Shown: piece by piece, positions 1-24,735 of the stretch
How the letters are laid out: each line of letters starts with the position of its first letter
How positions within the stretch are numbered: the first letter of the stretch is position 1
Assembly: GCA_031416315.1 (NCBI GenBank)
Contig: JANOTL010000023.1
Span: 1-24,735 of the forward strand
Length of the DNA stretch: 24,735 nt
DNA from: Pseudomonadota bacterium
GTDB taxonomy: Bacteria > Bdellovibrionota_B > Oligoflexia > Oligoflexales > CAIYRB01
Direction of reading: 5' to 3'
The notes under the pieces: generated by a model
Seen by the model: the letters and a program-made list of their open reading frames with translations, nothing else
The model's database searches: none
Told to the model about the DNA's origin: nothing
Made by a program: the position numbers and the translations under genes

Positions 1-112
1 GGGGTGGTTTGTTTTTTTTGCGGTCCAACCCGGCCTGGGGCCTGCCTTAAATAATTTTCCTCCCCCCCCCCCCGCTTCCTGGCTTCCAGCTAAAAAATCA
101 AGCCGTCAAAGA

Positions 113-955: not shown

Positions 956-1131
956 AGCTTCGCTACCTCCTGGGTGGCGATTCCGGCGATTCTTGCTTGA
1001 TCTGGGGAAATCGAGGACAAGGGGCTGAGAGAGGTCGAAGAAAGCTGGCGGCGAGGTTTGCTCTACTATTGACGATACCACGCTCATTCTTCGCGACACA
1101 ACGAAGACGAAAGAATCTCCTGGTGCCCCTG

Positions 1132-1911: not shown

Positions 1912-2095
1912 TGCGGCCGAGCCGGCGAGAATAGGCAGCCGTGCGCAGCGCCGCGGACGATGAAGCAGACGTGAGGGTAAACGGGCTAGCCACAGGGTGG
2001 GGCGCAGGCGCACGCACAAGCAATAGGCACATGCGTATGGCGAGGAAAACGTCGACGGTGGGCCTCACGTCGCGTCCAGCATGACCGGACACACC

Positions 2096-5051: not shown

Positions 5052-5061
5052 CGAGTGGCCC

Positions 5062-6746: not shown

Positions 6747-6781
6747 GCCCGCCCTCGCCTAAAATCTTCGGTCTTTCCCGA

Positions 6782-6810
6782 AAGATGCCGGCCCCGACGC
6801 GACAAGTCAA
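6782..6810 (-). promoter_or_regulatory. Candidate sigma70 promoter for the Gld-type ABC operon
   Basis: Minus strand TTGACT-17 nt-CATCTT, ending about 35 nt upstream of the ATG at 6746. The -10 match is weak. Confidence 0.35.
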
Positions 6811-6855
6811 CGCCTTAAAGGTTTCGAGGCCCGGGGAACTGCGCTGGCCGATTGC

Positions 6856-6864
6856 TGCTATGAT
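6856..6864 (+). promoter_or_regulatory. Candidate extended -10 element
   Basis: TGCTATGAT (consensus TGnTATAAT) ending 6 nt before the ATG at 6871. Confidence 0.4.
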
Positions 6865-6870
6865 TTGAGG

Positions 6871-8013
6871 ATGGAGCCTCGCTACCGCATTCTCATGGTC
6901 GACGACGTCACGCGTTACCACTCTCTATACGAGATGGCGATCACCGACGCGCTGCCTGCCGAGGTCCTTTTCGCGGTCAACGGCATCGAGGCTCTGGAGA
7001 AGCTGCAGTCGCCTTTGCCGTTCGATCTCTTGATTCTCGACCTCAACATGCCGAAGCTCGGCGGCGAGGAGACCCTGCGCCGCATCCGCCAGGATCCGAC
7101 CTTCGACACGATGCCGGTGATCATCCTGACCGGTGACACCGATCAGGACACGCACCGCCGTCTGCTCGACCTCGGCGCCGACGACTTCGTCGAGAAGGGC
7201 GCGCCGCCCGAGGTGTTCGTCTCGCGCCTGAAAGCGCAGATGCGGCACAAAGTCGCGCTCGACCGGCTGACGCGCGTCGCCGTCGACATGGACATCTTCG
7301 CCGCCGGCGTCTTGCACGACATCAGGAACCTCGAGACCAACATCCTGACCGTCGCCGAGCTGACACGCGAGTACTTGGGCGAGGACCCCGTCGGCCACAA
7401 AGACCAAATCATCGCCGATTTCGCCTCCCTCACGAGCCGCGCCGACAGCCTCGGCCGCTACGCCGCCGAGGTGATCCAGATGGTGCGCGAGACCCGCCGC
7501 GAGCTCGTGCTGACGCCGCAGGATCCGTGGCCTTACATCGAATGGGCGATGAAGATGGCGGCCCCGCAGCGTAGCGGCAAGACCGAGGTCAAGCTCAACT
7601 GGAAGATCAACGGGCCCCTCGCCTCCGTGATCGCCGACCGCCGCTTCCTGCAGCTCGCCGTCCTCAACATCGTGCAGAACGCCGTCAAATACCGCCGCCC
7701 CGGCGAGAACGCCGAGCTCGTCGTCGGCCAGCTGCCGGGCCGCCCGGAGTTCACCCGCCTCCACGGTCCGAGCGTCGTCATGACCTTCCGCGACAAGGGC
7801 GTCGGCATCAGGCCGGGCGAGCTGCGCAAGGTCTTCGAGCCTTTCGTCCGCGGCGAGGGCAGGACCAAGAAAGAAAGCGGCTTCGGCTTGGGCCTCGCGC
7901 TGGTGACCAAAGTGATGACGGCGATGAAGGGCCGCGTCTGGGCGGAGCTGCCGCCGGAAGGCCCGGGCGTCGTCTTGTGCCTCGAGCTGCCGGTCGCCGA
8001 GGGCGCTGCATGA
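6871..8013 (+). CDS. Hybrid response regulator/histidine kinase (REC-HisKA-HATPase_c), cytoplasmic
   Basis: REC: ILMVDD, LLILDLNMP, ILTG, FVEK. H-box GVLHDIRN, N-box LNIVQNAVKY, G1 FRDKGVGI, F-box VFEPF, G2 GFGLGL. Confidence 0.93.
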   Translation: MEPRYRILMVDDVTRYHSLYEMAITDALPAEVLFAVNGIEALEKLQSPLPFDLLILDLNMPKLGGEETLRRIRQDPTFDTMPVIILTGDTDQDTHRRLLDLGADDFVEKGAPPEVFVSRLKAQMRHKVALDRLTRVAVDMDIFAAGVLHDIRNLETNILTVAELTREYLGEDPVGHKDQIIADFASLTSRADSLGRYAAEVIQMVRETRRELVLTPQDPWPYIEWAMKMAAPQRSGKTEVKLNWKINGPLASVIADRRFLQLAVLNIVQNAVKYRRPGENAELVVGQLPGRPEFTRLHGPSVVMTFRDKGVGIRPGELRKVFEPFVRGEGRTKKESGFGLGLALVTKVMTAMKGRVWAELPPEGPGVVLCLELPVAEGAA

Positions 8014-9170
8014 GCCTGCCGCCGGCGTTCCAGATCCTCTTCGTCGAGGATCAAGTGCGGCATCAAAAGGTCTACGCGACCGCGATCGAGGAAGCCCTCC
8101 CGGTCAGCGTGCGCTTCGCGATGACCGGCAACGCCGCGCTCGCCGCGATCGATGATTCGGGCGAGCCGCCTGACCTCGTCGTCCTGGACTTGGACATCCC
8201 CGGCGTCAGCGGCAAGGAGGTGCTGGCCAAACTGCGCGCCCCCGACCGTTCGCGCTACATCCCCGTCATCATTCTCACCGGCTCCGGTGGCCTGGAAAAG
8301 CAGCTCGAGCTCCTGGAGCTGGGCGCGGACGACTTTCTCGAGAAGGGGATGGCGCCGGAGATCCTGATCGCGCGGATGCGCGCGCAAATGCGCCACAAGC
8401 TCGCGATGGACCGGCTGGAGCGGATGGCCCTCGACCGGGACCTCTTCGCCGCCGGCGTCCTCTCCGACATCGGCGGGATCCGCGGCCAGATCACCACGAT
8501 CTGCGGCGAGGTGCGCGGGCTCATGGAGAAGGATCCGGTCGCCGGCCAGACCGAGACGCTTCGGCTCCTGGACCGGCTCTCGTCCGTCGCCTCGAAGCTC
8601 GGCGCGTACGCCGCCGACGTCATCCAGACGGTGCGCGACACGAGCCGCGCGGCCGCCGCCGAGCCGCAGGACCTCGCGGCCCACCTCGAGTGGGTGCTCG
8701 ACGTGCTCGGCGCCAACACCGAGGGCAAGCCGCGCCTCGTCTTCACCGGCATCAAGGGCCTGGCGCCGGTGCTCGGCGACGCGAATTTCGTCCGCCTGGC
8801 GCTGCTCAACGTGGCGCAATGGGCCCTGAAACGCGAGGGCGAGCTGACGACTCCCGTGATCACCGTGACGCAGAAGACCAAAAGCGCGGCCATGGATCCC
8901 GAGGGCAGAGTCATCGTCTCGACGCGCTTCAGCGTCGGCGGCCCGCGCCCGACCTCGCGCGAGCTGGAGCGCACCTTCACGACGCAGCCGCCGCCGCCCT
9001 CGGCGAGCCGCGAGGATTTCAGCGCCGCGGGACCCGAGCTCGGCTTGGGCCTCTCGCTCGTCGGCAAAGTCATGAGTAAGATGGGCGGCAGGGCCCTGGC
9101 CGAGCCGCGCCCGGGCGACGAGCCCGGGCTCGAGGTCGCGCTCGAGCTTCCCGCCGTCCCCGTCATATGA
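8010..9170 (+). CDS. Paralogous REC-pseudo-histidine kinase
   Basis: ATGA overlap with the upstream gene. REC is intact (FVED, VVLDLDIP, ILTG, FLEK). H-box reads GVLSDIGG, N-box LNVAQWALK, G1 FSVGGPRP; LGLGLSLV is retained. Confidence 0.88.
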   Translation: MSLPPAFQILFVEDQVRHQKVYATAIEEALPVSVRFAMTGNAALAAIDDSGEPPDLVVLDLDIPGVSGKEVLAKLRAPDRSRYIPVIILTGSGGLEKQLELLELGADDFLEKGMAPEILIARMRAQMRHKLAMDRLERMALDRDLFAAGVLSDIGGIRGQITTICGEVRGLMEKDPVAGQTETLRLLDRLSSVASKLGAYAADVIQTVRDTSRAAAAEPQDLAAHLEWVLDVLGANTEGKPRLVFTGIKGLAPVLGDANFVRLALLNVAQWALKREGELTTPVITVTQKTKSAAMDPEGRVIVSTRFSVGGPRPTSRELERTFTTQPPPPSASREDFSAAGPELGLGLSLVGKVMSKMGGRALAEPRPGDEPGLEVALELPAVPVI

Positions 9171-9181
9171 ATGGATAGGAC

Positions 9182-10078
9182 ATGAAAAACGACAAGGCGA
9201 CCTCAGCCCAGAAGCTCGGCTCCGAAAGCGAAAGCGGCACGCCGACGCGCCCCGCCTTGAGCGGGGTGGACGACGTCGTCATGCTCGCCGGAGGCGTGGC
9301 GATGCCGCGCCTCGGCTTGGGCGTGTGGAAATGCGACGAGAACGAGGCGCGCGACGCCGTGATCTCTGCCTTGCGCGGCGGCTATCGCATGATCGACACC
9401 GCCTACGTCTACGACAACGAGCGCGAGGTCGGCGCCGGCATCGCCCAGTCGGGCGTGCCTCGGAGCTCGGTCTTCGTGACGACCAAGCTGTGGACCACCG
9501 ACCACGGCAGAGACCAAGCGCTCTCCGCTTTCGACGAGAGCCTAGCCAACCTCGGGCTCGAGCAGGTCGACCAATACCTCAGCCACTTTCCCGTCACGGG
9601 CAAGCGCGTCGAGACCTGGAAGGCGCTCCTCGAGCTGCAGAAATCCGGGCGCACGCGCTCGGTCGGCGTCAGCAACTACACGATTCGCCATCTCCAAGAG
9701 ATCATGGACGCGACCGGCGTCGCGCCGGCCGTGAACCAGGTCGAGTTCCACCCGTATCTCTTCCAGGCGGAGCTCCTCGAGTTCTGCCGCGCCCACAAGA
9801 TCCAGCTCGTCGCTTACAGCCCCTTGACGCACGGCTTGAAGCTTAAGGCGCCCGAGCTGGTCGAGGTGGCGCGCTCGGTGAAACGCACGCCGGCGCAGGT
9901 GCTGATCCGCTGGGCCTTGCAGCACGGCGTGGTGGTGATCCCGAAATCATCGCGCGAGGCGCGCATCCGCGAGAACGCCGCGGTGTACGACTTCGAGCTC
10001 GGAGACGTCGCCATGGCGACCCTGAACGGATTCGACGAGGAGCTGCGCACGTGTTGGGATCCCTCCGAAACGCCCTGA
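9182..10078 (+). CDS. Aldo/keto reductase (2,5-diketo-D-gluconate reductase-like)
   Basis: MPRLGLGVW, IDTAYVY (Asp/Tyr), TTKLW (Lys), LSHFP (His), GVSNY, NQVEFHP, VIPKS. Confidence 0.95.
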   Translation: MKNDKATSAQKLGSESESGTPTRPALSGVDDVVMLAGGVAMPRLGLGVWKCDENEARDAVISALRGGYRMIDTAYVYDNEREVGAGIAQSGVPRSSVFVTTKLWTTDHGRDQALSAFDESLANLGLEQVDQYLSHFPVTGKRVETWKALLELQKSGRTRSVGVSNYTIRHLQEIMDATGVAPAVNQVEFHPYLFQAELLEFCRAHKIQLVAYSPLTHGLKLKAPELVEVARSVKRTPAQVLIRWALQHGVVVIPKSSREARIRENAAVYDFELGDVAMATLNGFDEELRTCWDPSETP

Positions 10079-11745
10079 TTCCTGCTATGCTCGTTCCCCT
10101 CGTCTCCGGCTGCTGGCTCGTCGGCGAGTCGCGCGACAAGGGCGACGGCGAAGGCAAGACGAAGGCTCGCGACGCGGGAGCCACGGTCTCTTTGCCTGCG
10201 GCAGAGGCGCCGAAGCTCTGCGCCGCGATCCGCGGCAACGGCAACTACGTCATCACGCATTTCACCTCGCTCGCGCGGCTCTCCGAGCACTACGGCGTTT
10301 TCGACGCCTTGGCCGGCGGCAGCTCGGCCACGATCTCCGTCTTCCTCTACGAGAGCATGCGGATGAATCCGGAGCTCGCCAAATGCGGCGACCGGGCATG
10401 CTCCCCGGCCGAGTTCGGCGAGCGCATGGCGCTCCTCCTGAAGTCGGTGAAGCAATACTTCACCGCGCTCATCACCGACACCGACGAGGCGCTCGCCATC
10501 CGCGGCCTCGCGCCGATCGCCGAGCGGGTCAAGGCCGAAGGCGTCAAGGCCCTTCTCGACGTGAGCCCGCTCGAGGCGGCGTCGAAGCTCTACACCATCC
10601 TCTCCTCCGCCGATCTGAAAGACCTGATCAATCCCGAGATCCTGGCGCAGCTCGTCGACGTCGCGAACGCCGGCACCGCGGCGCCCGAGGTGTACGAGGC
10701 GATCACCAGTTTCGGCTCGTTCTCCGCCACCGATCCGAAGATCTTTTTCCGTCCGGGCGTCTTGAGCTTCGAGGGGCTCGCGGCGAAGATCGGGCGCATG
10801 GGAAGCTTCTACGCCGGCTACGGTCCCTTCGAGGCCGCGCGCTTCGCCGATTTCTTCGCCGCCTGCGGCCAGACGCGCGGCAAATCCTGGGAGGAGATCG
10901 CTCAACTTCCCGCCGCGGCCGACGGCGGCACCTGCGCCCGGATGTTCGACAAGATGGTCCTCGACTACCGGCGCGCCTTCGTCCTCGCCGAGGCGACGAC
11001 GCGCTCGCGCGCCGACGATCCGGTCGGGTCCTACCTGCACTCGATCGTCGCCACCTCGGTCCTCACCGGGCCTGGGGGCTTCGGCGCCTTCTCGCAGGCG
11101 ATGCAACGCTACAAGGGCGGCGAGGCGCCGGCGTTCGTGCCGGCGTTCGAGGACGTGCGCTTCGGCTATTTCGGCGCCGCGGACGACTTGGCGAAGATCA
11201 CGGCCGACCCCCTGGGCTTCGGCGACCTGAAGACGAAGAAGGCCTTGGCGCTCGGGCCTTTGCCGTGGCGCGTCGCGCTCTCGCTCTCGCCGGCAGAGCC
11301 CGGTCTCGCGCGCATCAAAGAGTTCAGCGGCGATCAAGCCTCCGCCGGCGGCTGGCCGGACCTCCACCCGGTGCAAGCGCTGAAGAACATCGGCTGCGCC
11401 AAGGTCGTCTACGTGACGCGCCGCGGCGAGGACTCGAAGTTCGCGCGCGGCGTCGCCAAGCTCCTCGGCATGCCGGACGACGCCGACAAGCAACTGTACG
11501 ACCTGGACGATCCGCAGAGCTCGTTTTCGCGCGCGTTGAGCGCCGCCGATGCGGTGTGGTGTACGGACTGGGACCGGTTCAAGGACGAAGAGATCACGGC
11601 GATGGCGGATGAATCGTATGCCGCGGTGCTCGAGACGAAGGATGCGTACTTCGCTCAGGGTGCGTCGGCTTATGCGCATCGGAGTGAGCGGACGAATTTT
11701 CGCGGGTGCTCGGTAGGGGCGCCGGCGGCGGCTGGGGTGCCTTGA
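10051..11745 (+). CDS. Lipoprotein with divergent patatin-like fold
   Basis: GAGGAG RBS 8 nt before GTG 10051; lipobox VSGC. AIRGNG...THFTSLARL...FDALAGGSSATISVFLY and SLSPAEPG...SAGGWPDLHPV...GCAKVVYV align by eye with the patatin blocks. Confidence 0.7.
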   Translation: MLGSLRNALIPAMLVPLVSGCWLVGESRDKGDGEGKTKARDAGATVSLPAAEAPKLCAAIRGNGNYVITHFTSLARLSEHYGVFDALAGGSSATISVFLYESMRMNPELAKCGDRACSPAEFGERMALLLKSVKQYFTALITDTDEALAIRGLAPIAERVKAEGVKALLDVSPLEAASKLYTILSSADLKDLINPEILAQLVDVANAGTAAPEVYEAITSFGSFSATDPKIFFRPGVLSFEGLAAKIGRMGSFYAGYGPFEAARFADFFAACGQTRGKSWEEIAQLPAAADGGTCARMFDKMVLDYRRAFVLAEATTRSRADDPVGSYLHSIVATSVLTGPGGFGAFSQAMQRYKGGEAPAFVPAFEDVRFGYFGAADDLAKITADPLGFGDLKTKKALALGPLPWRVALSLSPAEPGLARIKEFSGDQASAGGWPDLHPVQALKNIGCAKVVYVTRRGEDSKFARGVAKLLGMPDDADKQLYDLDDPQSSFSRALSAADAVWCTDWDRFKDEEITAMADESYAAVLETKDAYFAQGASAYAHRSERTNFRGCSVGAPAAAGVP

Positions 11746-11883
11746 TTTTCTGGATCCTCCGCAACATGTGTGGATAGCCGGGCCCCTCTCGCGCGGCTGA
11801 CCTGGCGTTGCCACCGCGAGTCCCGATGCCGCTTGCTAGCCAAAATGCCTGTCTCGGGGGAACGGCCTCCGAAAATGGTATGC

Positions 11884-11907
11884 TGATTAATCAAACTTTT
11901 GATTAAT
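11884..11907. promoter_or_regulatory. AT-rich operator-like inverted repeat
   Basis: ATTAATCAAA-CT-TTTGATTAAT (11886-11907) is a perfect 10-bp inverted repeat overlapping the palindrome TGATTAATCA (11884-11893). It sits in an AT-rich patch (~11875-11970) upstream of the TIGR02147 gene. Confidence 0.55.
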
Positions 11908-12118
11908 TGGTTCATGTAACATGCCATTTACATTATGTTTATATTGAATTTCTCATGTGCTAAAAAAAATGCCGTTAGGGATCTCATCACGGCATGTGGC
12001 CCTCGCCTGCACGAACAGGAAGCCGATGGATATGACGGCATGCGCAAAGGTGCTGCAAGACGACAAGTAGAACGCAGTCGACGCCGAGACCTTGATTTAA
12101 CCCGAACCGCGAGCGGCC

Positions 12119-13021
12119 ATGACCAGGAGAAAGACAGCATCGAACGCCGACGGCCGCGAGCCGCAGCTCTCCCTGGCGGAGATCCAGCGGCTGGCCGGTG
12201 GGATCGACGTGACCGCGATCTTGAGCTATCGCGAATATCTTGCAGCTATCTATGCCGCCTGTCGCGGCAGCGCTGACGAATACTCTTACAACCAATTCGC
12301 GCTCGATCTCGGGTTTTCCTGGTCCAACGTGCTCTGGCTCGTCGTCGACGGCCGCCGCAAGCTGACGCCGCTCACATCGCGTCGGCTGATCGAGACGCTC
12401 GGCCTTAGGGGCCGGCCGCGCCGCTACTTCGACGCGCTCGTCGCGTACAACAACGCACGACGCCCGGACGTGCGCCAGGACGCATTCGAAGAGCTCTTGC
12501 GCCACAAGGCGGCGGGCATCGCCGAGCCGAGCCGCCAGCTCGCGCTCGACTACTTTTCGGAGTGGTACAACCCGGTGCTCCGCGAGTTGACCGCACTGAA
12601 CGACTTCCGCTCCGACGTCGACTGGATCGCCGAACGGCTGGCATTCCCGCTCTTGCCCAATGAGATCAAGCGTGGCCTTCAGCTCCTGGAGAAGCTCGGA
12701 CTCGTGCGCTACGAAGCCGAGGCAGGGCGCCACGTACCGGCCGGCGGCGACGTCCTCCCAGACCGGGACTTCGATACGCTGGCGACGATCCGCCTCCACC
12801 AGCGCATGAGCGAGCTGGCACGGGACGCGATCCCGCGCACCGATGCGCGGCGGCGCGAGATGAATGTGATGACGCTCGCCGTCAACGAGGAGACCGCGAT
12901 GCGAATCGGCCAGATCCTGTACCGAACGTGCGAAGAAATTCTGGCGGTCGAGCGCGCCTGTAAGGACAAGACACAAGTCTACCAAGTCAATCTGCAGCTG
13001 TTTCCACTCACAAATTCCTGA
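12119..13021 (+). CDS. TIGR02147 family / DUF4423 protein, putative HTH regulator
   Basis: YREYL...YSYNQFALDLGF...LVVDGRRKLT, YFSEWYNPVLREL, LLEKLGLV, RREMNVMTLAV, VYQVNLQLFPLT. Confidence 0.9.
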   Translation: MTRRKTASNADGREPQLSLAEIQRLAGGIDVTAILSYREYLAAIYAACRGSADEYSYNQFALDLGFSWSNVLWLVVDGRRKLTPLTSRRLIETLGLRGRPRRYFDALVAYNNARRPDVRQDAFEELLRHKAAGIAEPSRQLALDYFSEWYNPVLRELTALNDFRSDVDWIAERLAFPLLPNEIKRGLQLLEKLGLVRYEAEAGRHVPAGGDVLPDRDFDTLATIRLHQRMSELARDAIPRTDARRREMNVMTLAVNEETAMRIGQILYRTCEEILAVERACKDKTQVYQVNLQLFPLTNS

Positions 13022-13029
13022 GAGAGCGT

Positions 13030-13848
13030 ATGAGCGGCAAATTTAAGCATCTCCTGCGAATGAGCGGCATTACCTCGGCCATGCTCGCCCTAGCCGTGGC
13101 AACGGCGGACTCCGGCTGCGGCACCTGGTCCGGCAATCCCAAGAATCCGAGCCCACCCGCGCCGCAACCGCCGTCGAACGTGCCGGTGATCGAGCCCGTG
13201 TCGGTGACCCTTAGGGCACGCGCCACCTCGGGCGCAGCGCTATCGACAGCCGAGACCATCACAGTCCGTGGCAAGGACGGCGCCTCCGCCGGTACGATCA
13301 CATTGACCCAAGCTCGCGTCGTCTTGAAGGAGATCAGGATCCGCGCGAGCGCTGGCGACGCCGCGATCCGTGAGAAGTTCGAAGGGCCTTACATCGTCGA
13401 CCTCATGAACGACCGCGTCTTACCGGATCCAGGTGCGATCAGCCTCGCGGCGGGCAGTTACTCGCGCGTCGAGCTGAGGCTGCACAAACTCGACAAGGAT
13501 GCCAATGCGGTCGGTGAGAACGACCCGCTCCTCGATCACAGTATCCACCTCGCGGGCACCTATACCGACGCCGAAGGGCGTGCGCGTCCCTTCGAGCTCA
13601 CGCACGACGTCAGTGAGGAGTTCGGGTTGGAGGCGACGACGCCGCTCGACCTCAAGGCCGGTGTCGCGAATGCGGTCGTGCTCGCCTTTCAGCAGTCGAT
13701 CTGGTTCGATCTTACGGGCGCGGAAGTCGACCTCGGCGACATCCTCGGCGATGTCGTTCTCGACGAGGACGCCGACGACTCAGCCAAGAAAGTACGCGAC
13801 CGCATCAAGGAAAACCTTAAACGCTCGGCGCGCCCGGAGCGCGAATGA
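13030..13848 (+). CDS. Putative lipoprotein, DUF4382-like beta-rich domain
   Basis: Signal peptide ending DSGC, then GTWSGNP and a Pro-rich linker; ARVVLKEIRI, GPYIVDL, ISLAAGSYSRVELRL. Starts 8 nt after the TIGR02147 stop. Confidence 0.7.
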   Translation: MSGKFKHLLRMSGITSAMLALAVATADSGCGTWSGNPKNPSPPAPQPPSNVPVIEPVSVTLRARATSGAALSTAETITVRGKDGASAGTITLTQARVVLKEIRIRASAGDAAIREKFEGPYIVDLMNDRVLPDPGAISLAAGSYSRVELRLHKLDKDANAVGENDPLLDHSIHLAGTYTDAEGRARPFELTHDVSEEFGLEATTPLDLKAGVANAVVLAFQQSIWFDLTGAEVDLGDILGDVVLDEDADDSAKKVRDRIKENLKRSARPERE

Positions 13849-15546: not shown

Positions 15547-16449
15547 GTGCAGATTAATTCACTAATATTATTGTCTATTATTGCGATGCTCGACGGGCGC
15601 GGCCGGAAGGTCGTGCTGGAGGCTCCGCCGCAGCGGATCGTCTCCGGCTCGCTCGCCAGCGACGAAATCCTCCTCGCACTTTTCGCCAGCTCGGGCCAAT
15701 CCGGACGCCTCGCCGCCGTGTCGAGCCTCGCCGACGACCCGCGCTACAGCAACGTCGTCGCCGCCGCCAAAACCGTGAAGGGCCGCTTCGGCGAAGGCCT
15801 CGAGACGGCCTTGGCGCTGAAGCCCGACCTCGCCGTGCTCGCCAGCTTCAACAAGCCGGAGACCATCGACCGCCTCGAGAAGGCGCAGGTGCGCTGCTTC
15901 GTCCTCGGCGGCTTCACCACCCTGGACGAGATCGCGGCCAACGTGACCGCGCTCGGCGAGCTGACGCAACTGAAGAAAGACGCCGGCGCCCTGAACGCCG
16001 TCTTCGCGAAGGCCCGGATGGCCGCGTGGGCCGGCGCGGTGCGCCTCCCCCGCCGGCCCAAGGTCCTAGGCTACCTCGGCGACGCCGCCGGCAATGGCGC
16101 CTTGACGCTGGCGGCGCGCGGGAGCCTCTTCGACGCCCTGATCGAGGAGGCCGGCGGCGAGAACCTCGCGAGCTCGCTCGGCCTCACCGGCTGGCCGACC
16201 GTCTCCGCCGAGGTCTTGGCCGGGCTCGCGCCCGACGTCGTCGTCACCGGCGGGGACGGGACGCCGGAGGCGCTGCGCCAGACTCTGCAGAATGCGCCTG
16301 GATGGAAGGCGATGAAGAGCCTCGCCCGCGCGAAGATGATCGTCGTCCCCGACCGCGAGCTCGGCGCGACGTCGCCTTACGTCGCGTCGGCCCTGACCAA
16401 GATTTCGCAGGGGCTCGCACAGGAGATCGCGCCGGGGCTTTCGCCGTGA
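15547..16449 (+). CDS. ABC substrate-binding protein, helical-backbone (BtuF/FecB/HmuT class)
   Basis: DGRGRKVVLEAPPQRIVS, ETALALKPDLAVL, LIEEAGGENLA, VSAEVLAGLAPDVVV. Confidence 0.9.
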   Translation: MQINSLILLSIIAMLDGRGRKVVLEAPPQRIVSGSLASDEILLALFASSGQSGRLAAVSSLADDPRYSNVVAAAKTVKGRFGEGLETALALKPDLAVLASFNKPETIDRLEKAQVRCFVLGGFTTLDEIAANVTALGELTQLKKDAGALNAVFAKARMAAWAGAVRLPRRPKVLGYLGDAAGNGALTLAARGSLFDALIEEAGGENLASSLGLTGWPTVSAEVLAGLAPDVVVTGGDGTPEALRQTLQNAPGWKAMKSLARAKMIVVPDRELGATSPYVASALTKISQGLAQEIAPGLSP

Positions 16450-17420
16450 TGCGCTTCGGACTCGCGCTTTTGGCGCTCCTCGCGGCGCTCCTCGCGGCGC
16501 TGCAGGTCGGCGCGGCGGACTACGGCTTACAGGACGTCCTGAAGGACGAGACCGCGCGCACGGTGATGCTCGAGATCCGCCTGCCGAGGCTCATCGTCGC
16601 CGCGCTCGCCGGGGCCGCGCTTTCGGCCGCAGGGGTCTTGAGCCAAGGCCTCTTTCGCAATCCGCTCGCGAGCCCCTCGATCCTCGGAACGGAGGCCGGC
16701 GCGAGCCTCGCGGCGGCTTTCGCGTTTCACGCCGGGCTCGCGTTCGCGGCCTGGTGGACCTTACCGCTCGCCGCGTTCGGCGGCGCCCTCGCCTCGACCG
16801 CGGTCCTCTTCGCCTTGGCGCGGCGCGGTGAACGGAACCGGCCGACGCCGCTCGCGACCCTGCTTTTGGCGGGCTTTGCGCTCAACGCCCTGCTCGGCGC
16901 CGGGACCTCGCTCTTATTGTCCCTCCTCCTCGAGGATTTCCAGCGCTCGTCGGCGGCCCTGCACTGGCTCCTCGGCGGCTTCGCCGGCAAGGGCGCCGAG
17001 CACATCCCCACGATCGCCCTGCCGGCAGTCCTCGGCTTCGCCCTCGCCGTGCGCCTCGCGCCGCGGCTCGACGCGCTGTCCTTGGGCGAGGACGTCGCGC
17101 AAAGCCTCGCCGTCGACCTCGCCTCGATGCGCCGCGCGACGTTCGGCGCCGTCGCGCTCCTCGTCGGCGGCGCTGCCGCCGTCTCCGGCGCCGTTCCGTT
17201 CGTCGGCTTGGTCGTCCCGCATCTGACGCGGAGTATGGCCGGCCCGCGGCACGGCACGCTCCTCGTCTTAAGCACCGTCAACGGCGCGACCTTGATGCTC
17301 CTCTGCGACCTCGTCGCGCGGACGATCCGATCGCCACGAGAGCTCGAGGTCGGCGTGATCACCGCGCTGCTCGGCGCGCCTTTCTTCCTCGCCCTCCTCC
17401 TGCGGAAGGATCGCCCGTGA
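16449..17420 (+). CDS. FecCD/BtuC family permease
   Basis: IRLPRL, QGLFRNPLASPSILG, LSLGEDVAQSL, FVGLVVPH, EVGVITALLGAPFFL. Start is ATG 16449 or GTG 16446, overlapping the binding-protein stop. Confidence 0.95.
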   Translation: MRFGLALLALLAALLAALQVGAADYGLQDVLKDETARTVMLEIRLPRLIVAALAGAALSAAGVLSQGLFRNPLASPSILGTEAGASLAAAFAFHAGLAFAAWWTLPLAAFGGALASTAVLFALARRGERNRPTPLATLLLAGFALNALLGAGTSLLLSLLLEDFQRSSAALHWLLGGFAGKGAEHIPTIALPAVLGFALAVRLAPRLDALSLGEDVAQSLAVDLASMRRATFGAVALLVGGAAAVSGAVPFVGLVVPHLTRSMAGPRHGTLLVLSTVNGATLMLLCDLVARTIRSPRELEVGVITALLGAPFFLALLLRKDRP

Positions 17421-18184
17421 TCGCCATACAGGCCTCCGATCTGGTCGTGCGTCTCGGAGCTCGCGCCGTCTTGGAGAGGGTCGACGCGAGCTTCGCGCGC
17501 GGTACGGTGACGGCGCTCGTCGGGCCGAACGGCGCGGGCAAGACGACCTTCCTGCGCACGCTCGCGGGATTGACGCGCGCCAGCGCGGGGAGCGTCGAGA
17601 TCGAGGGCTCGAACGTCGCGACGATGACGGCGCAGGCGCGCGCGCTGCGCCTGGCCTGGGTGCCGACGCCCGAGCCGCCGCCCTTTCCTTACACGGTGCT
17701 GGAGACCGTGAAGCTCGGGCGCTTCGCGCGGCACGAGGGCAGACCGCGTGCCGCCGACGAGGAAGCCGCGCTGCGCTCCCTCGCGGCCGTGGGCTTGCCG
17801 ACCTTCGCGTCCCGCCTCGTCACGGAGCTCTCCGGCGGCGAGCTCGCCCGCGTCGCCGTCGCCCGCGGGCTCGCGGCGGAGACGGACCTCGTTCTCCTCG
17901 ACGAGCCGACCGCGTCGCTCGACGTCGCCGCGGCGCTGCGCCTCCTGATCTTACTGCGCCAGCTCGCCGCGGCGGGACGGACGATCGTCCTCTCGCTGCA
18001 CGATTTGAGCGTCGCCTATCGCTACGCCGATCACGTCGTCATGCTCGGGGCCGGGCGCGTCGTCGCGGCCGGCCCGCCACGAGACGCCTTGACTCCCGCG
18101 AGCTTACGCGCGGCTTTTGGCGTCTCGGCGCAGATCGCGCGCACTGCGGACGGCCGGGAGGCGCTGTTTTTCGACCCGGAATGA
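17417..18184 (+). CDS. ABC ATP-binding protein (FecE/BtuD/HmuV class)
   Basis: GPNGAGKT, LSGGE, LLDEPT, SLHDL; GTGA overlap with the permease. Confidence 0.95.
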   Translation: MIAIQASDLVVRLGARAVLERVDASFARGTVTALVGPNGAGKTTFLRTLAGLTRASAGSVEIEGSNVATMTAQARALRLAWVPTPEPPPFPYTVLETVKLGRFARHEGRPRAADEEAALRSLAAVGLPTFASRLVTELSGGELARVAVARGLAAETDLVLLDEPTASLDVAAALRLLILLRQLAAAGRTIVLSLHDLSVAYRYADHVVMLGAGRVVAAGPPRDALTPASLRAAFGVSAQIARTADGREALFFDPE

Positions 18185-18265
18185 AGCGAAACGTCGCGGA
18201 ATGAAGCCTTGCGCCCCCGGATCCGTTCGGGAAAAATGCCCGCACGATCAACCCGGAGGTTCGAG

Positions 18266-19780
18266 ATGTCTTTCCTGACGACGACGCGCATCGCCCTGGC
18301 CGCCCTTGCGACGTGCGCCGCGGCGACCGCCAGCGGGCAAAAACTCCACGAGGCCCTGCGGCTCGACCTCACGCCGGAAGGCTTCGACCTCGTCGCGACC
18401 GTCGCCAAAGACGAGTTCCTGAACGAGATGCGCGGCGAGCCCTTGCCGTCGCAAGCGTTCGAGCTGCCGCTCCTCGCGCGCGTCCTCGCCGAGGACATCA
18501 CTTACACGGTGAAGCTCAAGACCCTGCAGCTGAACCCCGCCGACGGCGCGCTCCAACTCGACGTCGTGATCGACGACATCGTCGTGAGCGTCGGCCACCT
18601 CCGCCTCGAGACGTGGCTTCTTCCCGCGATCGGCACGAGCTGCCGCAGCTCGCAGTTCCATGTCGGCAACGACCGGGCCTTGCCGCTCGGCGCGCTCCTC
18701 GGCCTGTCGGTCGGCGGCGAAGACGGCGAGAAGGCTTTGGCCCTAGCGCTTCAGGACCTCGACTTCTCGATCGAGCGGAGCCAGTACCGCACGACTGGCC
18801 CGGAAGAGTGCCGCGGTCCCCTCGGCATCCAAGATCCCGTCACCCGTTGGGCCCTGCGCGAGGCCTTCGCCCGCACGCGCCCCCTTGTCGAGCACGGCGT
18901 GAAGTACGCCGTGAAAAAGCTTCTGCCGAAGATCCAGGAGCTCCTAAACGACTTCGCCACGACCCCGGTGGTCGTCGAGACCCCCGACCTGATCGTCCTC
19001 GCGCCCGCGCGTCTCGCCCTGCGCGGCCAGCCGACGGCGCTCGCCTTGTCGCCCGAAGGCCTGAAGCTCACCCTCGCCGCCGAGATCAAGCCGGCGCCGG
19101 AGAAGGCCGAGGCCCGCACCTTCGCCAAGCGCGTCAAGGCGTCCGGCGTCCGCTACGCCACCCTCGGCGTCACGCCGCGTTTCATGACCGAGCTCATGGG
19201 GACGCTGCTTGCCGACGGCACGCGCTTTCTGCCGCTCGACGCCGCGATGCACCCCCTCCTCGACACGATGACGGACCGCGAGTCCCTCACCGCCTTCTGG
19301 CCGGATTTGTCGGTCACGCGCTCGACGAGTGACCGCATGCAACTCTGGGGTCGCCTCGCGGCCGCCCCGGTCGTGACCTCGGCCGCTCAGGGCGAAGGCT
19401 TCCGCGTCGTCGTCCCAAGCGTCGAGCTGAAATACCAGCTGAGCCAGGAATCGGCATGGCGCGACTACGCGACCCTCTTCGTCAGCGCCGACGTCAATGC
19501 CGCGCCGGCGATCGTAGACGGCAAGCTCGTTCTGAAGCTCGACGGCGGCACGGCCGGGGCGACGGCCACCTGGGCTCCGGGCTATACGCCGGTCGACCCG
19601 ACCTTCGAAAAGGAGACCGCCGACGCCGTCTTTCAGACGGTCGTCGATCTCCTCAGCTCCACCGACGAGCCCCCGAGCTTTAGCCTGCCGGTCCTGGGAC
19701 TTGGCGACCGACGCCTGACCGCGGCCGGACTTCGTCGCGACGGGGACTGGGCTCTCTTGGACCTCGTCGACGCGCCTTAG
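18266..19780 (+). CDS. Secreted protein, putative BPI/LBP/CETP (TULIP)-like lipid-binding fold
   Basis: GGAGG RBS and Sec signal peptide. The pattern ALRLDLTPEGFDLV...LPSQ, YATLGVTPRFMTELM...G, LTAFWPDL, MQLWGRLAAAPVV resembles BPI N- and C-barrel segments. The CDS is well supported; the fold call is tentative. Confidence 0.6.
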   Translation: MSFLTTTRIALAALATCAAATASGQKLHEALRLDLTPEGFDLVATVAKDEFLNEMRGEPLPSQAFELPLLARVLAEDITYTVKLKTLQLNPADGALQLDVVIDDIVVSVGHLRLETWLLPAIGTSCRSSQFHVGNDRALPLGALLGLSVGGEDGEKALALALQDLDFSIERSQYRTTGPEECRGPLGIQDPVTRWALREAFARTRPLVEHGVKYAVKKLLPKIQELLNDFATTPVVVETPDLIVLAPARLALRGQPTALALSPEGLKLTLAAEIKPAPEKAEARTFAKRVKASGVRYATLGVTPRFMTELMGTLLADGTRFLPLDAAMHPLLDTMTDRESLTAFWPDLSVTRSTSDRMQLWGRLAAAPVVTSAAQGEGFRVVVPSVELKYQLSQESAWRDYATLFVSADVNAAPAIVDGKLVLKLDGGTAGATATWAPGYTPVDPTFEKETADAVFQTVVDLLSSTDEPPSFSLPVLGLGDRRLTAAGLRRDGDWALLDLVDAP

Positions 19781-19816
19781 AGGTGCGAACCGACCCTCAA
19801 TGGTAGTAAGGGCGCG

Positions 19817-19861
19817 GACGGCCCGGCATCCCGTACAATGGATGCCGGGCCGTCGTCTTTT
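19817..19861 (+). terminator. Strong GC hairpin, probable intrinsic terminator
   Basis: Perfect 15-bp stem GACGGCCCGGCATCC / GGATGCCGGGCCGTC with an 8-nt loop, followed by GTCTTTT. Confidence 0.75.
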
Positions 19862-19882
19862 ACCTCCCCGGGGTTTCCTCCC

Positions 19883-21049
19883 ATGCCTCTGATCGTCGAC
19901 CTTGCGCGCCTCGAGGACATCGAGAAGCTGCTGCGCCTCTATTACTCGGTGTACGGCGCGACGTATCCCCTGCCGCTCGGCTCCGACCAGGCGGTGATGC
20001 GGCGGATGATCGAAGCCTCCGAGACCGTCTACTGGCTGGTGACGCGCGACTGCGATACCGGCGCGGTCGTGGGCTCGGCTGTCTTCGAGACCGATCCTTA
20101 CAACAAGATCGTCAAGCTCGAGGGGGTCGTCGTCGACCCGAAGATGCGCAACCGCAGCGTCGCCAACCTGATGATCGTCGAGGGCACCAAGCGCTTTCTC
20201 GGGCCGGAGGCGCCGTTCAACTCGCTCTACGCTACGACACGCACCGTCTCCGTCGGCCCGCAGCTCATGTGTCTGAAGAACGGCTTCTTGCCGCTTGGCA
20301 TTTTCCCGAACGCGCACAAGCTCACGCAGTACGAGTCGGTGACGCTGCTTGCGCGCTTTCGCGACGGGATCCTGGCGCGCCGCGAGCCGGTCTTCGAGAT
20401 CCCCGCCAAGATCGCGCCGCTCCTCGCCATCACCGAAGCGACGCTGAAGGCGCCGCCGCGCGACTACAAGATCATCCAGCCGCGCGTGCCCACCACCGAG
20501 GAGCGCAGCGAGCGGCGGACGCCGCAGGAGTTCGAGTTCCTTTACGCGCCGAGCTACGTCGAGCGCCGGTACCTCGAGACCTTCCCGGACCGTATGGAAC
20601 GCTTCTACCCGTTCCACACGCCGAACCTGATGATCGCGTCAAAAGACGGCAAAGTGGAGATCTACGCTTTCCTGAGCAAGTCCGATCGTTACTGCACCAT
20701 CTGCGCCTGCACGGTCCCGATCACGACCCTGGAAGGTCGCCTCGGCGGCCTCTTCGATCAGCTCGCCGACTACGGCGCCTCCTACGTCGAGACGCTCGTG
20801 CCCCTCGGCCATCGCACGACGCTGGAGGCGCTCCTCGAGTTCCAGTTCGTCGGCTCCGCCATCTACCCCGCGATGCGCGAGCGCGAAGGCAAGGTCGAGG
20901 ACATCGTCGTCATGTCGCGGACGATGGAGCCCTTGAACTTCCGCGGCATGGCCATCGACAAATCCTTCAAGCCCTATATCGATCAGTACGTCGACTCCTG
21001 GAAGCAGATGTATCTAGACGTGCTCGAGGTCTTCAATGATCCCAAGTGA
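19883..21049 (+). CDS. GNAT-family acyltransferase, probably tandem GNAT folds
   Basis: LARLEDIEKLLRLY..VY...YP, motif A-like VVVDPKMRNRSVANLM, KNGFLPLGIFP. A second GNAT-like ending follows (LLEFQFVGSAIYP...EDIVVMSR). The alternative ATG 19838 lies inside the hairpin. Confidence 0.78.
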   Translation: MPLIVDLARLEDIEKLLRLYYSVYGATYPLPLGSDQAVMRRMIEASETVYWLVTRDCDTGAVVGSAVFETDPYNKIVKLEGVVVDPKMRNRSVANLMIVEGTKRFLGPEAPFNSLYATTRTVSVGPQLMCLKNGFLPLGIFPNAHKLTQYESVTLLARFRDGILARREPVFEIPAKIAPLLAITEATLKAPPRDYKIIQPRVPTTEERSERRTPQEFEFLYAPSYVERRYLETFPDRMERFYPFHTPNLMIASKDGKVEIYAFLSKSDRYCTICACTVPITTLEGRLGGLFDQLADYGASYVETLVPLGHRTTLEALLEFQFVGSAIYPAMREREGKVEDIVVMSRTMEPLNFRGMAIDKSFKPYIDQYVDSWKQMYLDVLEVFNDPK

Positions 21050-22172
21050 GCCCCTTCGCGTCCCCGACCCCGTGCGACTCGCAGCCGTGCAGAAGCTCTG
21101 CGACCTGAAGGCGCCTTACGCCCCGAGTCCCAAGATCTCGGCCTTGTTCCAAGCGGCGATGACGGAATCAGTTGCCTGGCACGCCGCGCGCTCCCCCTTC
21201 TACGCCAAGCTCCTAGCGGCCGAGGGCGGCATTCCCTTCGTCGCGGCCAACTTCTTCAAGAGCCACGAGGTGCTCTCGATCCCGAAGGCGGAGGTCTTCC
21301 TCCACCTCACCTCCTCCGGCACGACGGGCCAGAAGTCGCAGATCTTCTTCGACGAGTGGACGATCAAGAGCGCCCAGCGCATGGTCGACTTCATCTTCGC
21401 GCACTACGGCTGGCACACGCCGGACGAGCCCGCGAACTATCTTCTCTACAGCTACGAGCCGAAACCCGGCTTTAAGGTCGGCACGTCCTATACCGACAAT
21501 TTCCTGCTGAAGTACGCGCGCCCCAATCGCGTCGAGTACGCGCTGAAAAACACTGGCGACGGCCGCCACGAGTTCGACGGCTTCGGCGTCGTTAAGGCAC
21601 TGCAGGAGTTCGGCGAAGAAGGCCTGCCGGTGCGCATCCTGGGCTTTCCGGCCTTCATGCATTTCACGCTCGAGCGCATGGCGGCCATGGGTGTCGCGCC
21701 CTTGAAATTCTCGGAGAAGAGCCTCGTCTTCTTCGGCGGCGGCTGGAAGGGCAACGCCGACAGGGAAATCAAGAAGCGCGATCTTTATGCGGACATGGAG
21801 CGGCGTCTGGGCATCCCCGACGAGCGCATCCGCGACGGCTTCGGCTCGGTCGAGCACTGCATTCCCTACGTCGAATGCAAGGCGCACGAGTTCCACGTGC
21901 CGATCTGGTCGGAGGTGGTGATCCGCGACGTGACGACGCTTGCGCCCGTGGGCTACGGCAAGCCGGGATACCTCACCTTCATCTCGCCTTACATCACCTC
22001 GGTGCCGGCGCAGCACGTGCTGATGCACGATCTCGCCGAGCTCCATCCCGCCGCCTCGTGCCGTTGCGGGCTGCCGACACCTTTTTTCAGGATCCTCGGC
22101 CGCGCCGGCCTGAGCCGCAACAAGAGTTGCGCCGTCGCCGCCGCCGAGCTGCTCGGGAAGGGCGCGTCATGA
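21036..22172 (+). CDS. LuxE-like acyl-protein synthetase
   Basis: FFKSHEVLS, LTSSGTTGQKSQIFFD, ILGFPAF, GGGWKG, IRDGFGSVEH, HVP.W..V.IRD, and FRILGRAG....SC with the C-terminal acyl-accepting Cys (22128-22130). Overlaps the GNAT gene by 14 nt. Confidence 0.92.
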   Translation: MIPSEPLRVPDPVRLAAVQKLCDLKAPYAPSPKISALFQAAMTESVAWHAARSPFYAKLLAAEGGIPFVAANFFKSHEVLSIPKAEVFLHLTSSGTTGQKSQIFFDEWTIKSAQRMVDFIFAHYGWHTPDEPANYLLYSYEPKPGFKVGTSYTDNFLLKYARPNRVEYALKNTGDGRHEFDGFGVVKALQEFGEEGLPVRILGFPAFMHFTLERMAAMGVAPLKFSEKSLVFFGGGWKGNADREIKKRDLYADMERRLGIPDERIRDGFGSVEHCIPYVECKAHEFHVPIWSEVVIRDVTTLAPVGYGKPGYLTFISPYITSVPAQHVLMHDLAELHPAASCRCGLPTPFFRILGRAGLSRNKSCAVAAAELLGKGAS

Positions 22173-24715
22173 GCATGCTGCACTACGTGCGTGGAGCCTG
22201 GATGGGCGACGCCGAGATGAAGGCCGCGCTCGCGACGCTTGAAGACGACGCCGGGGCGGCGCTCGGCGAGCCGCTCCCGACCGAAGCCGTCCTCGCCGCG
22301 GCCGAGGCGCTCGGGCGCTCGCTCCTTGGCGAGGACGAGACCGCGCGCGCCCTGCAGCGCGTGCTCGTGGTCGAGCACCATCAAACCGAGGCGGAGGCCG
22401 CAGACACCCTCAAGGAAATGGCGGCCTTCCTAAGCCGCGCCGAGCTGGAGAAAAAGCTCGTCCGCGAGCTCGGCTCGAAGGAGCCGCTCGCCGCCGTCCG
22501 CTCGGGCTTTCGCGAGGCCCATTTCGAAAGCTGGGCGCCGCTCGGGACGCTCGTCCACGTCGCGCCCACCAACGCGGCTTCGGTCGGCGCCTTGAGCGTC
22601 TTAGAGGGCCTCCTCGTCGGCAACTTCAACGTGCTGAAGATCGGCGGCCAGGATGGTACCTTCGCCGCGCACTTCCTCGCCACGCTCGCCGCGCGCGAGC
22701 CGACCGGCGCGCTGGCGCGGCGCGTCGTCGCCGTGCGCGTCTCGTCGAAGGATCAGGAGACGATGGCACGCCTCGTCGCGGTCGCCGACGGCATCGCCGC
22801 CTGGGGCAGCGAGGAGGCCGTCGCCGGCATCCGCAAGCTCGCGCCGCCGCATGCCAGATTCGTCGACTGGGGGCCGAAAATCTCGTTCGCCTACTTGACG
22901 CGCGCCGCGGCCCTGAATGCCGAGGTCGTGCAGAAGCTCGCCGAGGAGATCGTCCTCGTCGAGCAGCAGGCTTGCTCGAGCCCCCAAGTCGCCTACGTCG
23001 ACCTCGATCCCAAGGCCGAAAAAGACGCCTTGGTAGCCTTCGCCGAGCGCCTCGCCGCGGCGCTGTTGGAGCTCTCGCGAACACGGCCAGCCCCCGAGCT
23101 CGACCGCGCCGAGCGCGCCGAGATCACCAACGTCGTGCAGGTGACGCGCCTCGAGCAGTATCTCGAAGACGGCCTCACGCACGTCATCGACGGCTCGCGC
23201 GACGGCTACCGCGTGCTCGTCGACTTTCGCTCCGCCTTGCGCGCTTCCCCCTTGAATCGCACGATCTGGATCAAGGGCCTGCCGCGCGCCGAGATCGTCC
23301 GCACCTTGCGGCCGATGCGCGCCTATTTGCAGACCGTCGGCCTCGCCGCGCCGGCGGAGGATTACCCCGCGCTAGCGGAAGCTTTCGTCCGCGCCGGCGC
23401 CCTGCGCGTGGCCGAGATCGGATCGATGCTCGGCAGTTACGCCGGCGAGCCGCACGACGGCGTCTATGCCTTGCCCCGATATGCGCGGCGAATCAGCTAC
23501 CAGCCGGGCGAGAGCATGGCGGGCGTCTCGAGCCTGGCGCAACTGGCGGCGCCCGCGGCGCCCGGCCTCGCCATGGCGGAAAAGCCGGTGCTGACGAAGG
23601 CGGGCTTTCAGGCGCACGAGGTCGCGGCCGAGCACTCGCACCTCTTTTTCAAGAGCGGCGGCAGCTCCGGCGAGCCGAAGCTTTCGATCTTCACTTACGA
23701 CGACTACCACCGGCACATGGCGCTCGCGGCGCGCGGCCTCTACGCGGCGGGGCTCGATCCGCGACACGATCGCTGCATGAACCTCTTTTTCGCCGGTGGG
23801 CTTTACGGCGGCTTCGTCAGCTTCTTCACCATCCTCGAGATGATGCGCGCCGTCCAGCTGCCGATGGCGGCCAACATGGACATGGAAGACGTCGCGCAGG
23901 TCCTGGTGAAACAGCGTGTGAACGTGCTGCTCGGCATGCCGAGCTATATCCTCCAGCTCTTCCATCGCAACGACGAGTTGTTGGCGCGAGAGCGCGTCGT
24001 CAAGAAGATCTTCTACGGCGGCGAGCATTTCAACGAGGCGCAACAGAAGCATTTTCGCGAGCGCTACGGCGTCGAGCTGATCCGCTCGGCGACTTACGGC
24101 AGCGTCGACGCGGGGCCGCTCGGCTACCAATGCCGCAGCTGCGAGGGCGTGACGCATCACCTGCATTCCGAGCTGCATTCGCTAGAGATCCTGGAGCTGG
24201 AGAAGGACGCGCCCGTCGGCAAGGGCGAGGTCGGCCGCCTGGTCTTCACCTCGCGCGTCCGCGAGGGACAGGACCTAGCGCGCTACGAGATCGGAGACGT
24301 CGGGCGCTGGGTGCCGCGCCGCTGCGCAAGCGGCATCGCCGCGCCGCGCTTCGAGCTCCTCGGTCGCACGGGCGACGTGTTCCGCATCGGCAGCGAGTTC
24401 TTCAACTACCGGAAGATGACCAAGATCTTGGCCGACCATTGCGCCTACTCCGGCGAGGTGCAGCTCGAGCTCTTCTCGGAGTCCGCGCGCGAGGAGATTC
24501 GCGTGCTCGTAGATCGCGAGGGGCTCGACCTGATGGCCATGCGGCGCGCCTTGCTCGATCACTACGGCGAGCTCTCCACCGTCGTCGAGGACGAAGGGCT
24601 TCTGTCTTTGACGGTAAAGGTCGTGCTGGGAGAAGAGATGGAGCGCACGAAGGGCAGCGGCAAGCTTCGCGCCGTCGTTGACCGACGCCTTCCCGGGAAA
24701 GGGGTCCTGCGGTGA
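22169..24715 (+). CDS. Fusion of LuxC-like acyl-CoA reductase and PaaK-like adenylate-forming CoA ligase (848 aa)
   Basis: N-half: PLGTLVHVAPTN, AWGSEEA, WGPKISF, EQQACSSPQ (Cys269), PHDG. C-half: FKSGGSSGEPK, FYGGEHF, TYGSVDAG, RYEIGDVG, LLGRTGD. ATGA overlap with the LuxE-like gene. Confidence 0.92.
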   Translation: MSMLHYVRGAWMGDAEMKAALATLEDDAGAALGEPLPTEAVLAAAEALGRSLLGEDETARALQRVLVVEHHQTEAEAADTLKEMAAFLSRAELEKKLVRELGSKEPLAAVRSGFREAHFESWAPLGTLVHVAPTNAASVGALSVLEGLLVGNFNVLKIGGQDGTFAAHFLATLAAREPTGALARRVVAVRVSSKDQETMARLVAVADGIAAWGSEEAVAGIRKLAPPHARFVDWGPKISFAYLTRAAALNAEVVQKLAEEIVLVEQQACSSPQVAYVDLDPKAEKDALVAFAERLAAALLELSRTRPAPELDRAERAEITNVVQVTRLEQYLEDGLTHVIDGSRDGYRVLVDFRSALRASPLNRTIWIKGLPRAEIVRTLRPMRAYLQTVGLAAPAEDYPALAEAFVRAGALRVAEIGSMLGSYAGEPHDGVYALPRYARRISYQPGESMAGVSSLAQLAAPAAPGLAMAEKPVLTKAGFQAHEVAAEHSHLFFKSGGSSGEPKLSIFTYDDYHRHMALAARGLYAAGLDPRHDRCMNLFFAGGLYGGFVSFFTILEMMRAVQLPMAANMDMEDVAQVLVKQRVNVLLGMPSYILQLFHRNDELLARERVVKKIFYGGEHFNEAQQKHFRERYGVELIRSATYGSVDAGPLGYQCRSCEGVTHHLHSELHSLEILELEKDAPVGKGEVGRLVFTSRVREGQDLARYEIGDVGRWVPRRCASGIAAPRFELLGRTGDVFRIGSEFFNYRKMTKILADHCAYSGEVQLELFSESAREEIRVLVDREGLDLMAMRRALLDHYGELSTVVEDEGLLSLTVKVVLGEEMERTKGSGKLRAVVDRRLPGKGVLR

Positions 24716-24735
24716 TCTTCGCGCTCGCCGAGATC
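24712..24735 (+). CDS. Possible start of a further coupled gene, truncated by the window end
   Basis: GTGA overlap with the preceding stop; reads MIFALAEI open to the end. Only 8 codons are visible. Confidence 0.35.

Follow-up and report, generated by a model that had tools for sequence, protein, structure and literature searches.

The DNA analysed here, a stretch of 24,735 nucleotides (the window) that makes up the entire contig C23 of genome G000, the assembly of a probably uncultured Oligoflexales bacterium, carries at its right-hand end the first part of an operon whose enzymes resemble those of the Klebsiella leupeptin (leup) operon. On the plus strand, a gene for a GNAT-family protein of 388 amino acids (19883-21049) is followed by one for a LuxE-like protein of 378 amino acids (21036-22172) and one for an 848-amino-acid fusion of a LuxC-type and a PaaK-like part (LuxC::PaaK; 22169-24715). 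An earlier note on this DNA had read the three genes as tied by a 14-nucleotide overlap (GNAT and LuxE-like) and an ATGA overlap (LuxE-like and fusion), which the coordinates confirm, and had suspected a fourth gene joined through GTGA. Such a gene does begin, with a GTG at 24712 inside a GTGA overlap with the fusion gene. Its first eight codons (24712-24735, plus strand) end the window and the remainder lies on contig C114 of the same genome, to position 1262, the whole encoding a stand-alone PaaK-like ligase of about 421 amino acids that is homologous to LeupC. A gene for a major facilitator superfamily (MFS) exporter with MFS_1 and MFS_3 matches comes next (C114:1259-2515), again with a GTGA overlap. 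The operon consists of these five genes, in the order GNAT, LuxE-like, LuxC::PaaK, PaaK-like and MFS, and the window holds its first part.

The join between C23 and C114 is seen in two public contigs. The first 20 nucleotides of C114 are the last 20 of the window, and a 10,702-nucleotide contig from X1, a run that may be the source sample, crosses the join (its positions 1-4891 correspond to window 19845-24735 and its positions 4872-7633 to C114 1-2762). A 2,768-nucleotide contig of run X2, which comes from another study and a relative about 90% identical, crosses it as well, and these spanning contigs rule out an assembly artefact at the contig end. With C114 joined, the operon encodes three adenylating domains rather than the two counted earlier, plus the exporter, and the five-gene unit holds no gene for a carrier protein or a nonribosomal peptide synthetase (NRPS). 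Just 5′ of the GNAT gene, at 19817-19864 on the plus strand, stands a terminator-like hairpin with a 15-pair stem and a T-rich tail (one site observed against 0.1 expected in shuffled sequences), which ends about 20 nucleotides before the GNAT start and likely closes the upstream transcription unit. Because this hairpin covers the alternative ATG at 19838, and because the N-termini of homologues agree, 19883 is favoured as the GNAT start. No sigma-70-like promoter was found within 19600-20000.

The domain searches bore out the enzyme families proposed from the reading frames, the GNAT assignment being the faintest. The LuxE-like protein matches PF04443 (E 5e-25) and retains GGGWK238, R356 and a C-terminal C365, and K238, R356 and C365 correspond by pattern to Lys238, Arg355 and Cys364 described for LuxE (PMC9157457). 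The fusion matches LuxC (PF05893, E 2e-83) and AMP-binding (PF00501) families, with PaaK-type NCBIfam hits; a LuxC-type acyl-thioester reductase domain with Cys269 spans approximately residues 36-440 and a PaaK-like adenylating domain approximately residues 445-848. Its C269, R733 and K832 are invariant in 141/141 aligned homologues, the P-loop is also retained, and for its structural model (predicted local distance difference test, pLDDT, 93.2) the matches include structures of PaaK (E 1e-24) and of LuxC (7XC6, E 2e-23). The stand-alone ligase matches PF00501 and keeps R298 and K408, as do all 29 of the 29 aligned sequences. As judged from these alignments, the catalytic motifs are intact in the LuxE-like protein, the fusion and the stand-alone ligase.

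The GNAT protein matches PF00583 weakly (E 8e-4, just under the cut-off). Its model (pLDDT 93.8), in which the second half repeats the GNAT order of strands and helices, indicates that it likely has two GNAT-like domains. Structure hits mainly span residues 1-167. Residues 1-165 match many GNATs, and VIA-align scores many as ties for this N-terminal domain; the top Foldseek hits are phosphinothricin and ArsN N-acetyltransferases, enzymes that acetylate amino-acid analogues (phosphinothricin and arsinothricin).

The published leup operon, leupABCD plus an MFS gene, has the same five components as the operon described here (preprint 10.64898/2026.08.25.747093). According to the available portion of PMC11480411, Klebsiella michiganensis makes leupeptin and a lysine analogue from it, and an excerpt of PMC11212599 describes the route as separate AMP-dependent ligases plus a reductase, without an NRPS. 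As a reference we used locus L056, reached through a published leupA primer (PMC8283571) that found eight metagenome loci; in six of the eight, pairing it with the second primer gives an amplicon of the published 1,235 bp, and the LeupB of L056 has exactly the sequence of a protein that carries the label K. michiganensis (P0182). Compared with L056, the LuxE-like protein is 54% identical to LeupA over 371 amino acids (E 4e-138), the fusion is 38.5% identical to LeupB over 771 amino acids with the same Pfam architecture, and the stand-alone ligase is 40% identical to LeupC over 422 amino acids (E 1e-97). When LeupA, LeupB and LeupC were used as queries against G000, the best hit of each was the matching cassette gene. 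The GNAT gave no BLASTP hit to LeupD, and a profile comparison matched the two at 92.9% (E 4e-7, 187 columns) in the N-terminal domain only, by which the GNAT would be the functional counterpart of LeupD.

Li et al. reportedly described the leupeptin operon in 2020 in K. michiganensis/oxytoca, Xenorhabdus bovienii and Photorhabdus. A cassette in leupABCD order that lacks the MFS gene also lies on a conjugative Salmonella enterica plasmid (L051:4878-10636, CP054717.1), its fusion being 66% identical to proteins labelled K. michiganensis.

A second point of comparison is Streptomyces (Streptantibioticus) cattleya DSM 46488, whose plasmid pSCATT (NC_017585.1, approximately 376,450-383,800) carries all five genes in the same subtypes, in a cassette that is unannotated. 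Identities to the genes of the window operon are 48% for the PaaK-like ligase, 39% for the MFS, 38% for the GNAT, 59-60% for the LuxE-like protein and 47% for the fusion, and for all five genes the S. cattleya homologues are closer to the operon here than the Klebsiella ones are. LeupD and the Klebsiella MFS, used as queries on pSCATT, gave no hit at E 1e-4. In a mass spectrometry (MS) study, DSM 46488 yields a 13-node leupeptin family that includes Ac-Leu-Leu (PMC12235219), and leupeptin, propionyl-leupeptin and strepin P1 are products of a different S. cattleya isolate (PMC5511137).

Taken together, these homologies make it likely that the operon is a divergent relative of leup whose product, an N-acyl peptide aldehyde that inhibits proteases, is built with neither an NRPS nor a carrier protein and then exported. 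The GNAT would first transfer an acyl group from acyl-CoA onto the amine of the first amino acid. The two PaaK-like domains would then adenylate the growing acyl-peptide acid and couple it directly to the amine of the next amino acid, two such rounds giving a tripeptide acid. Next, the LuxE-like protein would adenylate the C-terminus and load it on its Cys365, from where it would move to Cys269 of the LuxC domain for reduction with NADPH to the aldehyde, and the MFS protein would export the peptide aldehyde. We infer every one of these steps, and which ligase serves which step could differ. The product would, slightly more likely than not, be leupeptin (Ac-Leu-Leu-argininal) or a close acyl-X-X-Arg/Lys-al analogue; a different peptide aldehyde is a fairly unlikely outcome. 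The proposed order also fits older biochemistry on Streptomyces, which is said to have described a leucine acyltransferase, a leupeptin acid synthetase and an ATP- and NADPH-dependent leupeptin acid reductase, for which our search found no paper.

Two parts of the earlier note fare differently against this background. Its idea that a LuxCE reductase has been reused in a carrier-protein-free line to an aldehyde, with the GNAT acylating an amine, agrees with the leup operon, which is built of the same parts. Its suggestion that similar clusters may exist unstudied fails for the cluster type because leupABCD has the same five parts and a characterised product, leupeptin, an outcome that the note itself had named as refuting; the enzyme set is mostly explained by a characterised pathway.

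Several observations weigh against so close an equation with leup. The gene order here is GNAT-A-B-C-MFS and that in Klebsiella is MFS-A-B-C-D; the GNAT, at 388 amino acids, is 83 longer than LeupD (305 amino acids) and about 18% identical to it; and a pairwise comparison of the MFS with its Klebsiella counterpart shows no similarity. In the fusion tree, proteobacterial LeupB proteins form their own clade (support 100, on a long branch) with the window protein outside. A comparison of 103 window-like with 37 LeupB-like fusions shows several differences close to the presumed site of acid binding, G544, F549 and Y593 of the window fusion being replaced by N, L and T in 100% of the 37, and the stand-alone ligases read GGE/GYAS in the window group and GSE/GCAC in the leup group; some of the group-differing residues fall in the predicted PaaK-like dimer interface, and the pocket-region comparison gives a mixed picture. 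Klebsiella surveys call leup strictly at at least 90% identity with the same gene order (preprint 10.64898/2026.08.25.747093), and here identities are 38-54% and the order is different. For S. cattleya, the link between cassette and leupeptin is a correlation resting on MS annotation, the cassette search having covered plasmid pSCATT; a literature search found no paper linking this cassette to leupeptin, and in S. roseus leupeptin is assigned to an NRPS cluster (10.1101/2020.10.26.356543). On balance, the sequence comparisons place the operon in a wider family that works like leup, but as a leup-like variant and not as strict leupABCD. The operon is real and of a known kind, and is a divergent, uncharacterised subtype.

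The same enzymes might instead make a non-peptide product, with a fatty or aryl acid activated, reduced to an aldehyde or alcohol and coupled to an amine to give a lipid or small amide, as in the lipid or unknown small molecule that the earlier note had proposed. The closest solved structures do belong to aryl- and fatty-acid enzymes (PaaK, NatL2, AjiA1, ClxA and LuxC), and the GNAT and some pocket-region residues are unlike those of Klebsiella. GriC/GriD, two-part aryl acid reductases, offer a model for such chemistry beside LuxCE. Yet the enzymes are 38-54% identical to their Leup counterparts and 18-24% to the PaaK and LuxC structures, the NCBIfam models for true LuxE (NF052244) and true LuxC (NF052251) score 62 and 66 bits against cut-offs of 550 and 750, there is no LuxD to provide a fatty acid, and the nearest cultured carrier of the cassette makes leupeptins. 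We regard a non-peptide product as improbable, and by leup homology a peptide aldehyde is the likelier one.

A peptide might also be made whose working form is shorter or processed, such as a dipeptide aldehyde, an alcohol or a pyrazinone signal. Leup-derived pyrazinones act as signals in Klebsiella (PMC11480411), and the number of ligases varies among related cassettes; against this, all three adenylating domains are present with intact motifs, and the pyrazinones form downstream of the tripeptide aldehyde. This outcome strikes us as very improbable.

That the genes are what remains of a bioluminescence system, one half of such a system without its partner, or a cassette in decay is hardly credible, even though LuxE and LuxC Pfam families match, one luciferase-like gene lies elsewhere in the genome and the LuxE-like protein is about 13 residues shorter near position 65 than some homologues. 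The earlier statement that luxA, luxB and luxD are missing holds beyond the window: the ligase and MFS genes lie downstream, neither luxD nor a luxA/luxB pair was found in the genome, the LuxD family (PF02273) has no match in G000, which is 93.3% complete, and the one weak luciferase-like match (PF00296, 46 bits, contig C7) has as its best NCBIfam hits weak, generic luciferase-like monooxygenase subfamilies. That open reading frame, used as a loose and weak probe on 42 cassette loci, gave no match. With lux model scores far below cut-off as well, we rejected bioluminescence. All cassette frames are open, and the short LuxE-like loop recurs in other homologues and shows no gap relative to a 91% identical relative, which also rules it out as an assembly artefact. 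G000 does hold a 960-codon open frame on the minus strand (L070:3258-6140; C61, approximately 47,260-50,140) in which a weakly LuxE-like segment, bearing GGTKGK and KGCSLL motifs, precedes a weak match to LuxC (E 5e-7): a second, very divergent LuxE-LuxC pair, possibly fused.

Returning to the peptide-aldehyde pathway, we modelled the fused ligase domain together with the stand-alone ligase. The complex scored 0.80 and the best of three controls 0.00, at a mark attained by 116 of 157 solved pairs and 2 of 215 mismatched pairs; the runs agree in 93% of contacts and the partners have pLDDT of at least 83. The two PaaK-like domains are thus predicted to pair with each other. PaaK-type enzymes form homodimers, and the predicted interface, which is built from matching segments of the two related domains, may only echo that arrangement.

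Cassettes of this kind recur elsewhere, as the earlier note had supposed. The LuxE-like protein found 30 GTDB loci, 29 in Bdellovibrionota and one in Obscuribacterales by record title, which are kin and not independent, and 28 of the 30 keep the order GNAT-LuxE-fusion-PaaK (of the other two, one runs into a contig edge and the second has no GNAT). Clustering by blastp places an MFS gene directly upstream of the cassette in 21/30 loci, at 22-26% identity; tblastn with the window MFS found it in 0/30 at E 1e-6. Among the best 120 of 574 matches, full-length homologues of the fusion at 46-58% identity also carry Streptomyces, Crossiella, Longimycelium, Massilia, Pseudochelatococcus and Elusimicrobiota labels. 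Within the host class the cassette is unevenly spread: a LuxE-like match at E 1e-20 occurs in 18 of 131 genomes, only five (G000 included) reach at least 55% identity over its full length, and in the host's own family a match, of a divergent type, occurs in one of 11 genomes. Cassette composition (GC 0.63-0.68; GC at third codon positions 0.85-0.90) resembles that of five neighbouring genes (0.66-0.73 and 0.88-0.91) and, though the distribution is patchy, gives no sign of recent horizontal transfer.

More divergent forms of the cassette are found at 23-37% identity. In quickly searched trees, whose branches are long, the enzymes of the window operon join those of Streptomyces and Klebsiella in one large group apart from these (support 99, 95 and 81 for the LuxE-like, fusion and stand-alone ligase trees), and the window enzymes stand near the actinomycete ones (support 96 in an 11-row set for the fusion, 89 for the stand-alone ligase and 81 for LuxE). 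Genome G025, which is of the host's order and encodes a protein identical to one with an Oligoflexales label, carries two cassettes (L062:7859-15150 and L063:4248-13285), one with the exact five-gene order of the window operon, the other divergent, in a different order, with two GNAT-like genes and an extra 489-amino-acid protein partly similar to LeupD (26% over 159 amino acids). L065, L066 and L067 (G034, G048 and G054) hold a divergent three-gene form of GNAT, LuxE-like and fusion genes at 27-37% identity, with differing pocket-region motifs and, in L066 and L067, no stand-alone ligase adjoining; this form may make a shorter product. In L068:284-6613 (G060) the cassette is broken, with a short GNAT and the fusion split into three frames, by decay or assembly error.

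Upstream of the operon, at 15547-19780, the window holds an ABC importer of the iron/B12 type (binding protein, FecCD permease and ATPase) and a 523-amino-acid open reading frame; Pfam and NCBIfam searches with the latter gave no match, and in the relatives examined none of these genes is found again next to the cassette. A gene of the DUF4423 family (12119-13021) precedes the cassette by a few kilobases, as in eight Bacteriovoracales loci (L024, L025, L029, L032, L035, L037, L043 and L049), where the family may simply be common in genomes of this type. Elsewhere in G000, a second small-molecule cluster, unexpected in this lineage, lies on C88 (L071:544-8110; approximately 5,540-13,110). It comprises genes for an amino acid kinase, a dehydroquinate synthase II, a DeoC-like aldolase, an amidohydrolase, an AjiA1/NatL2-like ligase (very close to these, E 1e-117), a second AMP ligase and a heme-oxygenase-like enzyme, and presumably resembles the aminohydroxybenzoate/benzoxazole pathway family.

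The pathway type extends well outside Gammaproteobacteria, to Bdellovibrionota, Obscuribacterales, Elusimicrobiota, Massilia and actinomycetes. Our literature search, which did not take in the original leup description or its supplement (where the distribution may be shown), found no paper on this subtype and none extending the pathway type beyond Gammaproteobacteria. S. cattleya DSM 46488 offers a cultured strain with both this subtype and leupeptins, and Halobacteriovorax marinus (L050) is another cultured carrier; variants of the cassette may yield protease inhibitors that are new, and with four soluble enzymes one can test in which order a carrier-free peptide line proceeds. As a speculation that we hold to be doubtful, the long-GNAT subfamily would be the widespread form of carrier-free peptide-aldehyde synthesis, with the Klebsiella operon as one offshoot; it would be the source of leupeptin in S. 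cattleya and other actinomycetes, and in Bdellovibrionota it would make a new peptide aldehyde that controls the predators' own proteases or those of prey, built by a PaaK-like heterodimer docked on a LuxCE reductase.

Set beside known systems, the operon shares with the LuxC-LuxE of luminous bacteria (7XC6; PMC9157457) the GGGWK, Arg and C-terminal Cys motifs, the LuxC fold and its catalytic Cys. Unlike luminous LuxCDE, it has no LuxD or LuxAB, its LuxC is fused to an extra ligase, and its LuxE and LuxC fall far below the NCBIfam cut-offs. NatL2, AjiA1 and ClxA of benzoxazole pathways have the same fold as its PaaK-like ligases at approximately 18-21% identity but act on aryl substrates and have no reductase partner. 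These enzymes link two free acids or amines with no carrier involved. In the pSCATT cassette the GNAT is likewise of the long kind and the MFS of the same type, and the genes stand in the order PaaK-MFS-GNAT-LuxE-fusion rather than GNAT-LuxE-fusion-PaaK-MFS, and Klebsiella leup has in common with the operon a LuxE-like protein, a LuxC::PaaK fusion, a stand-alone PaaK-like ligase, a GNAT and an MFS exporter.

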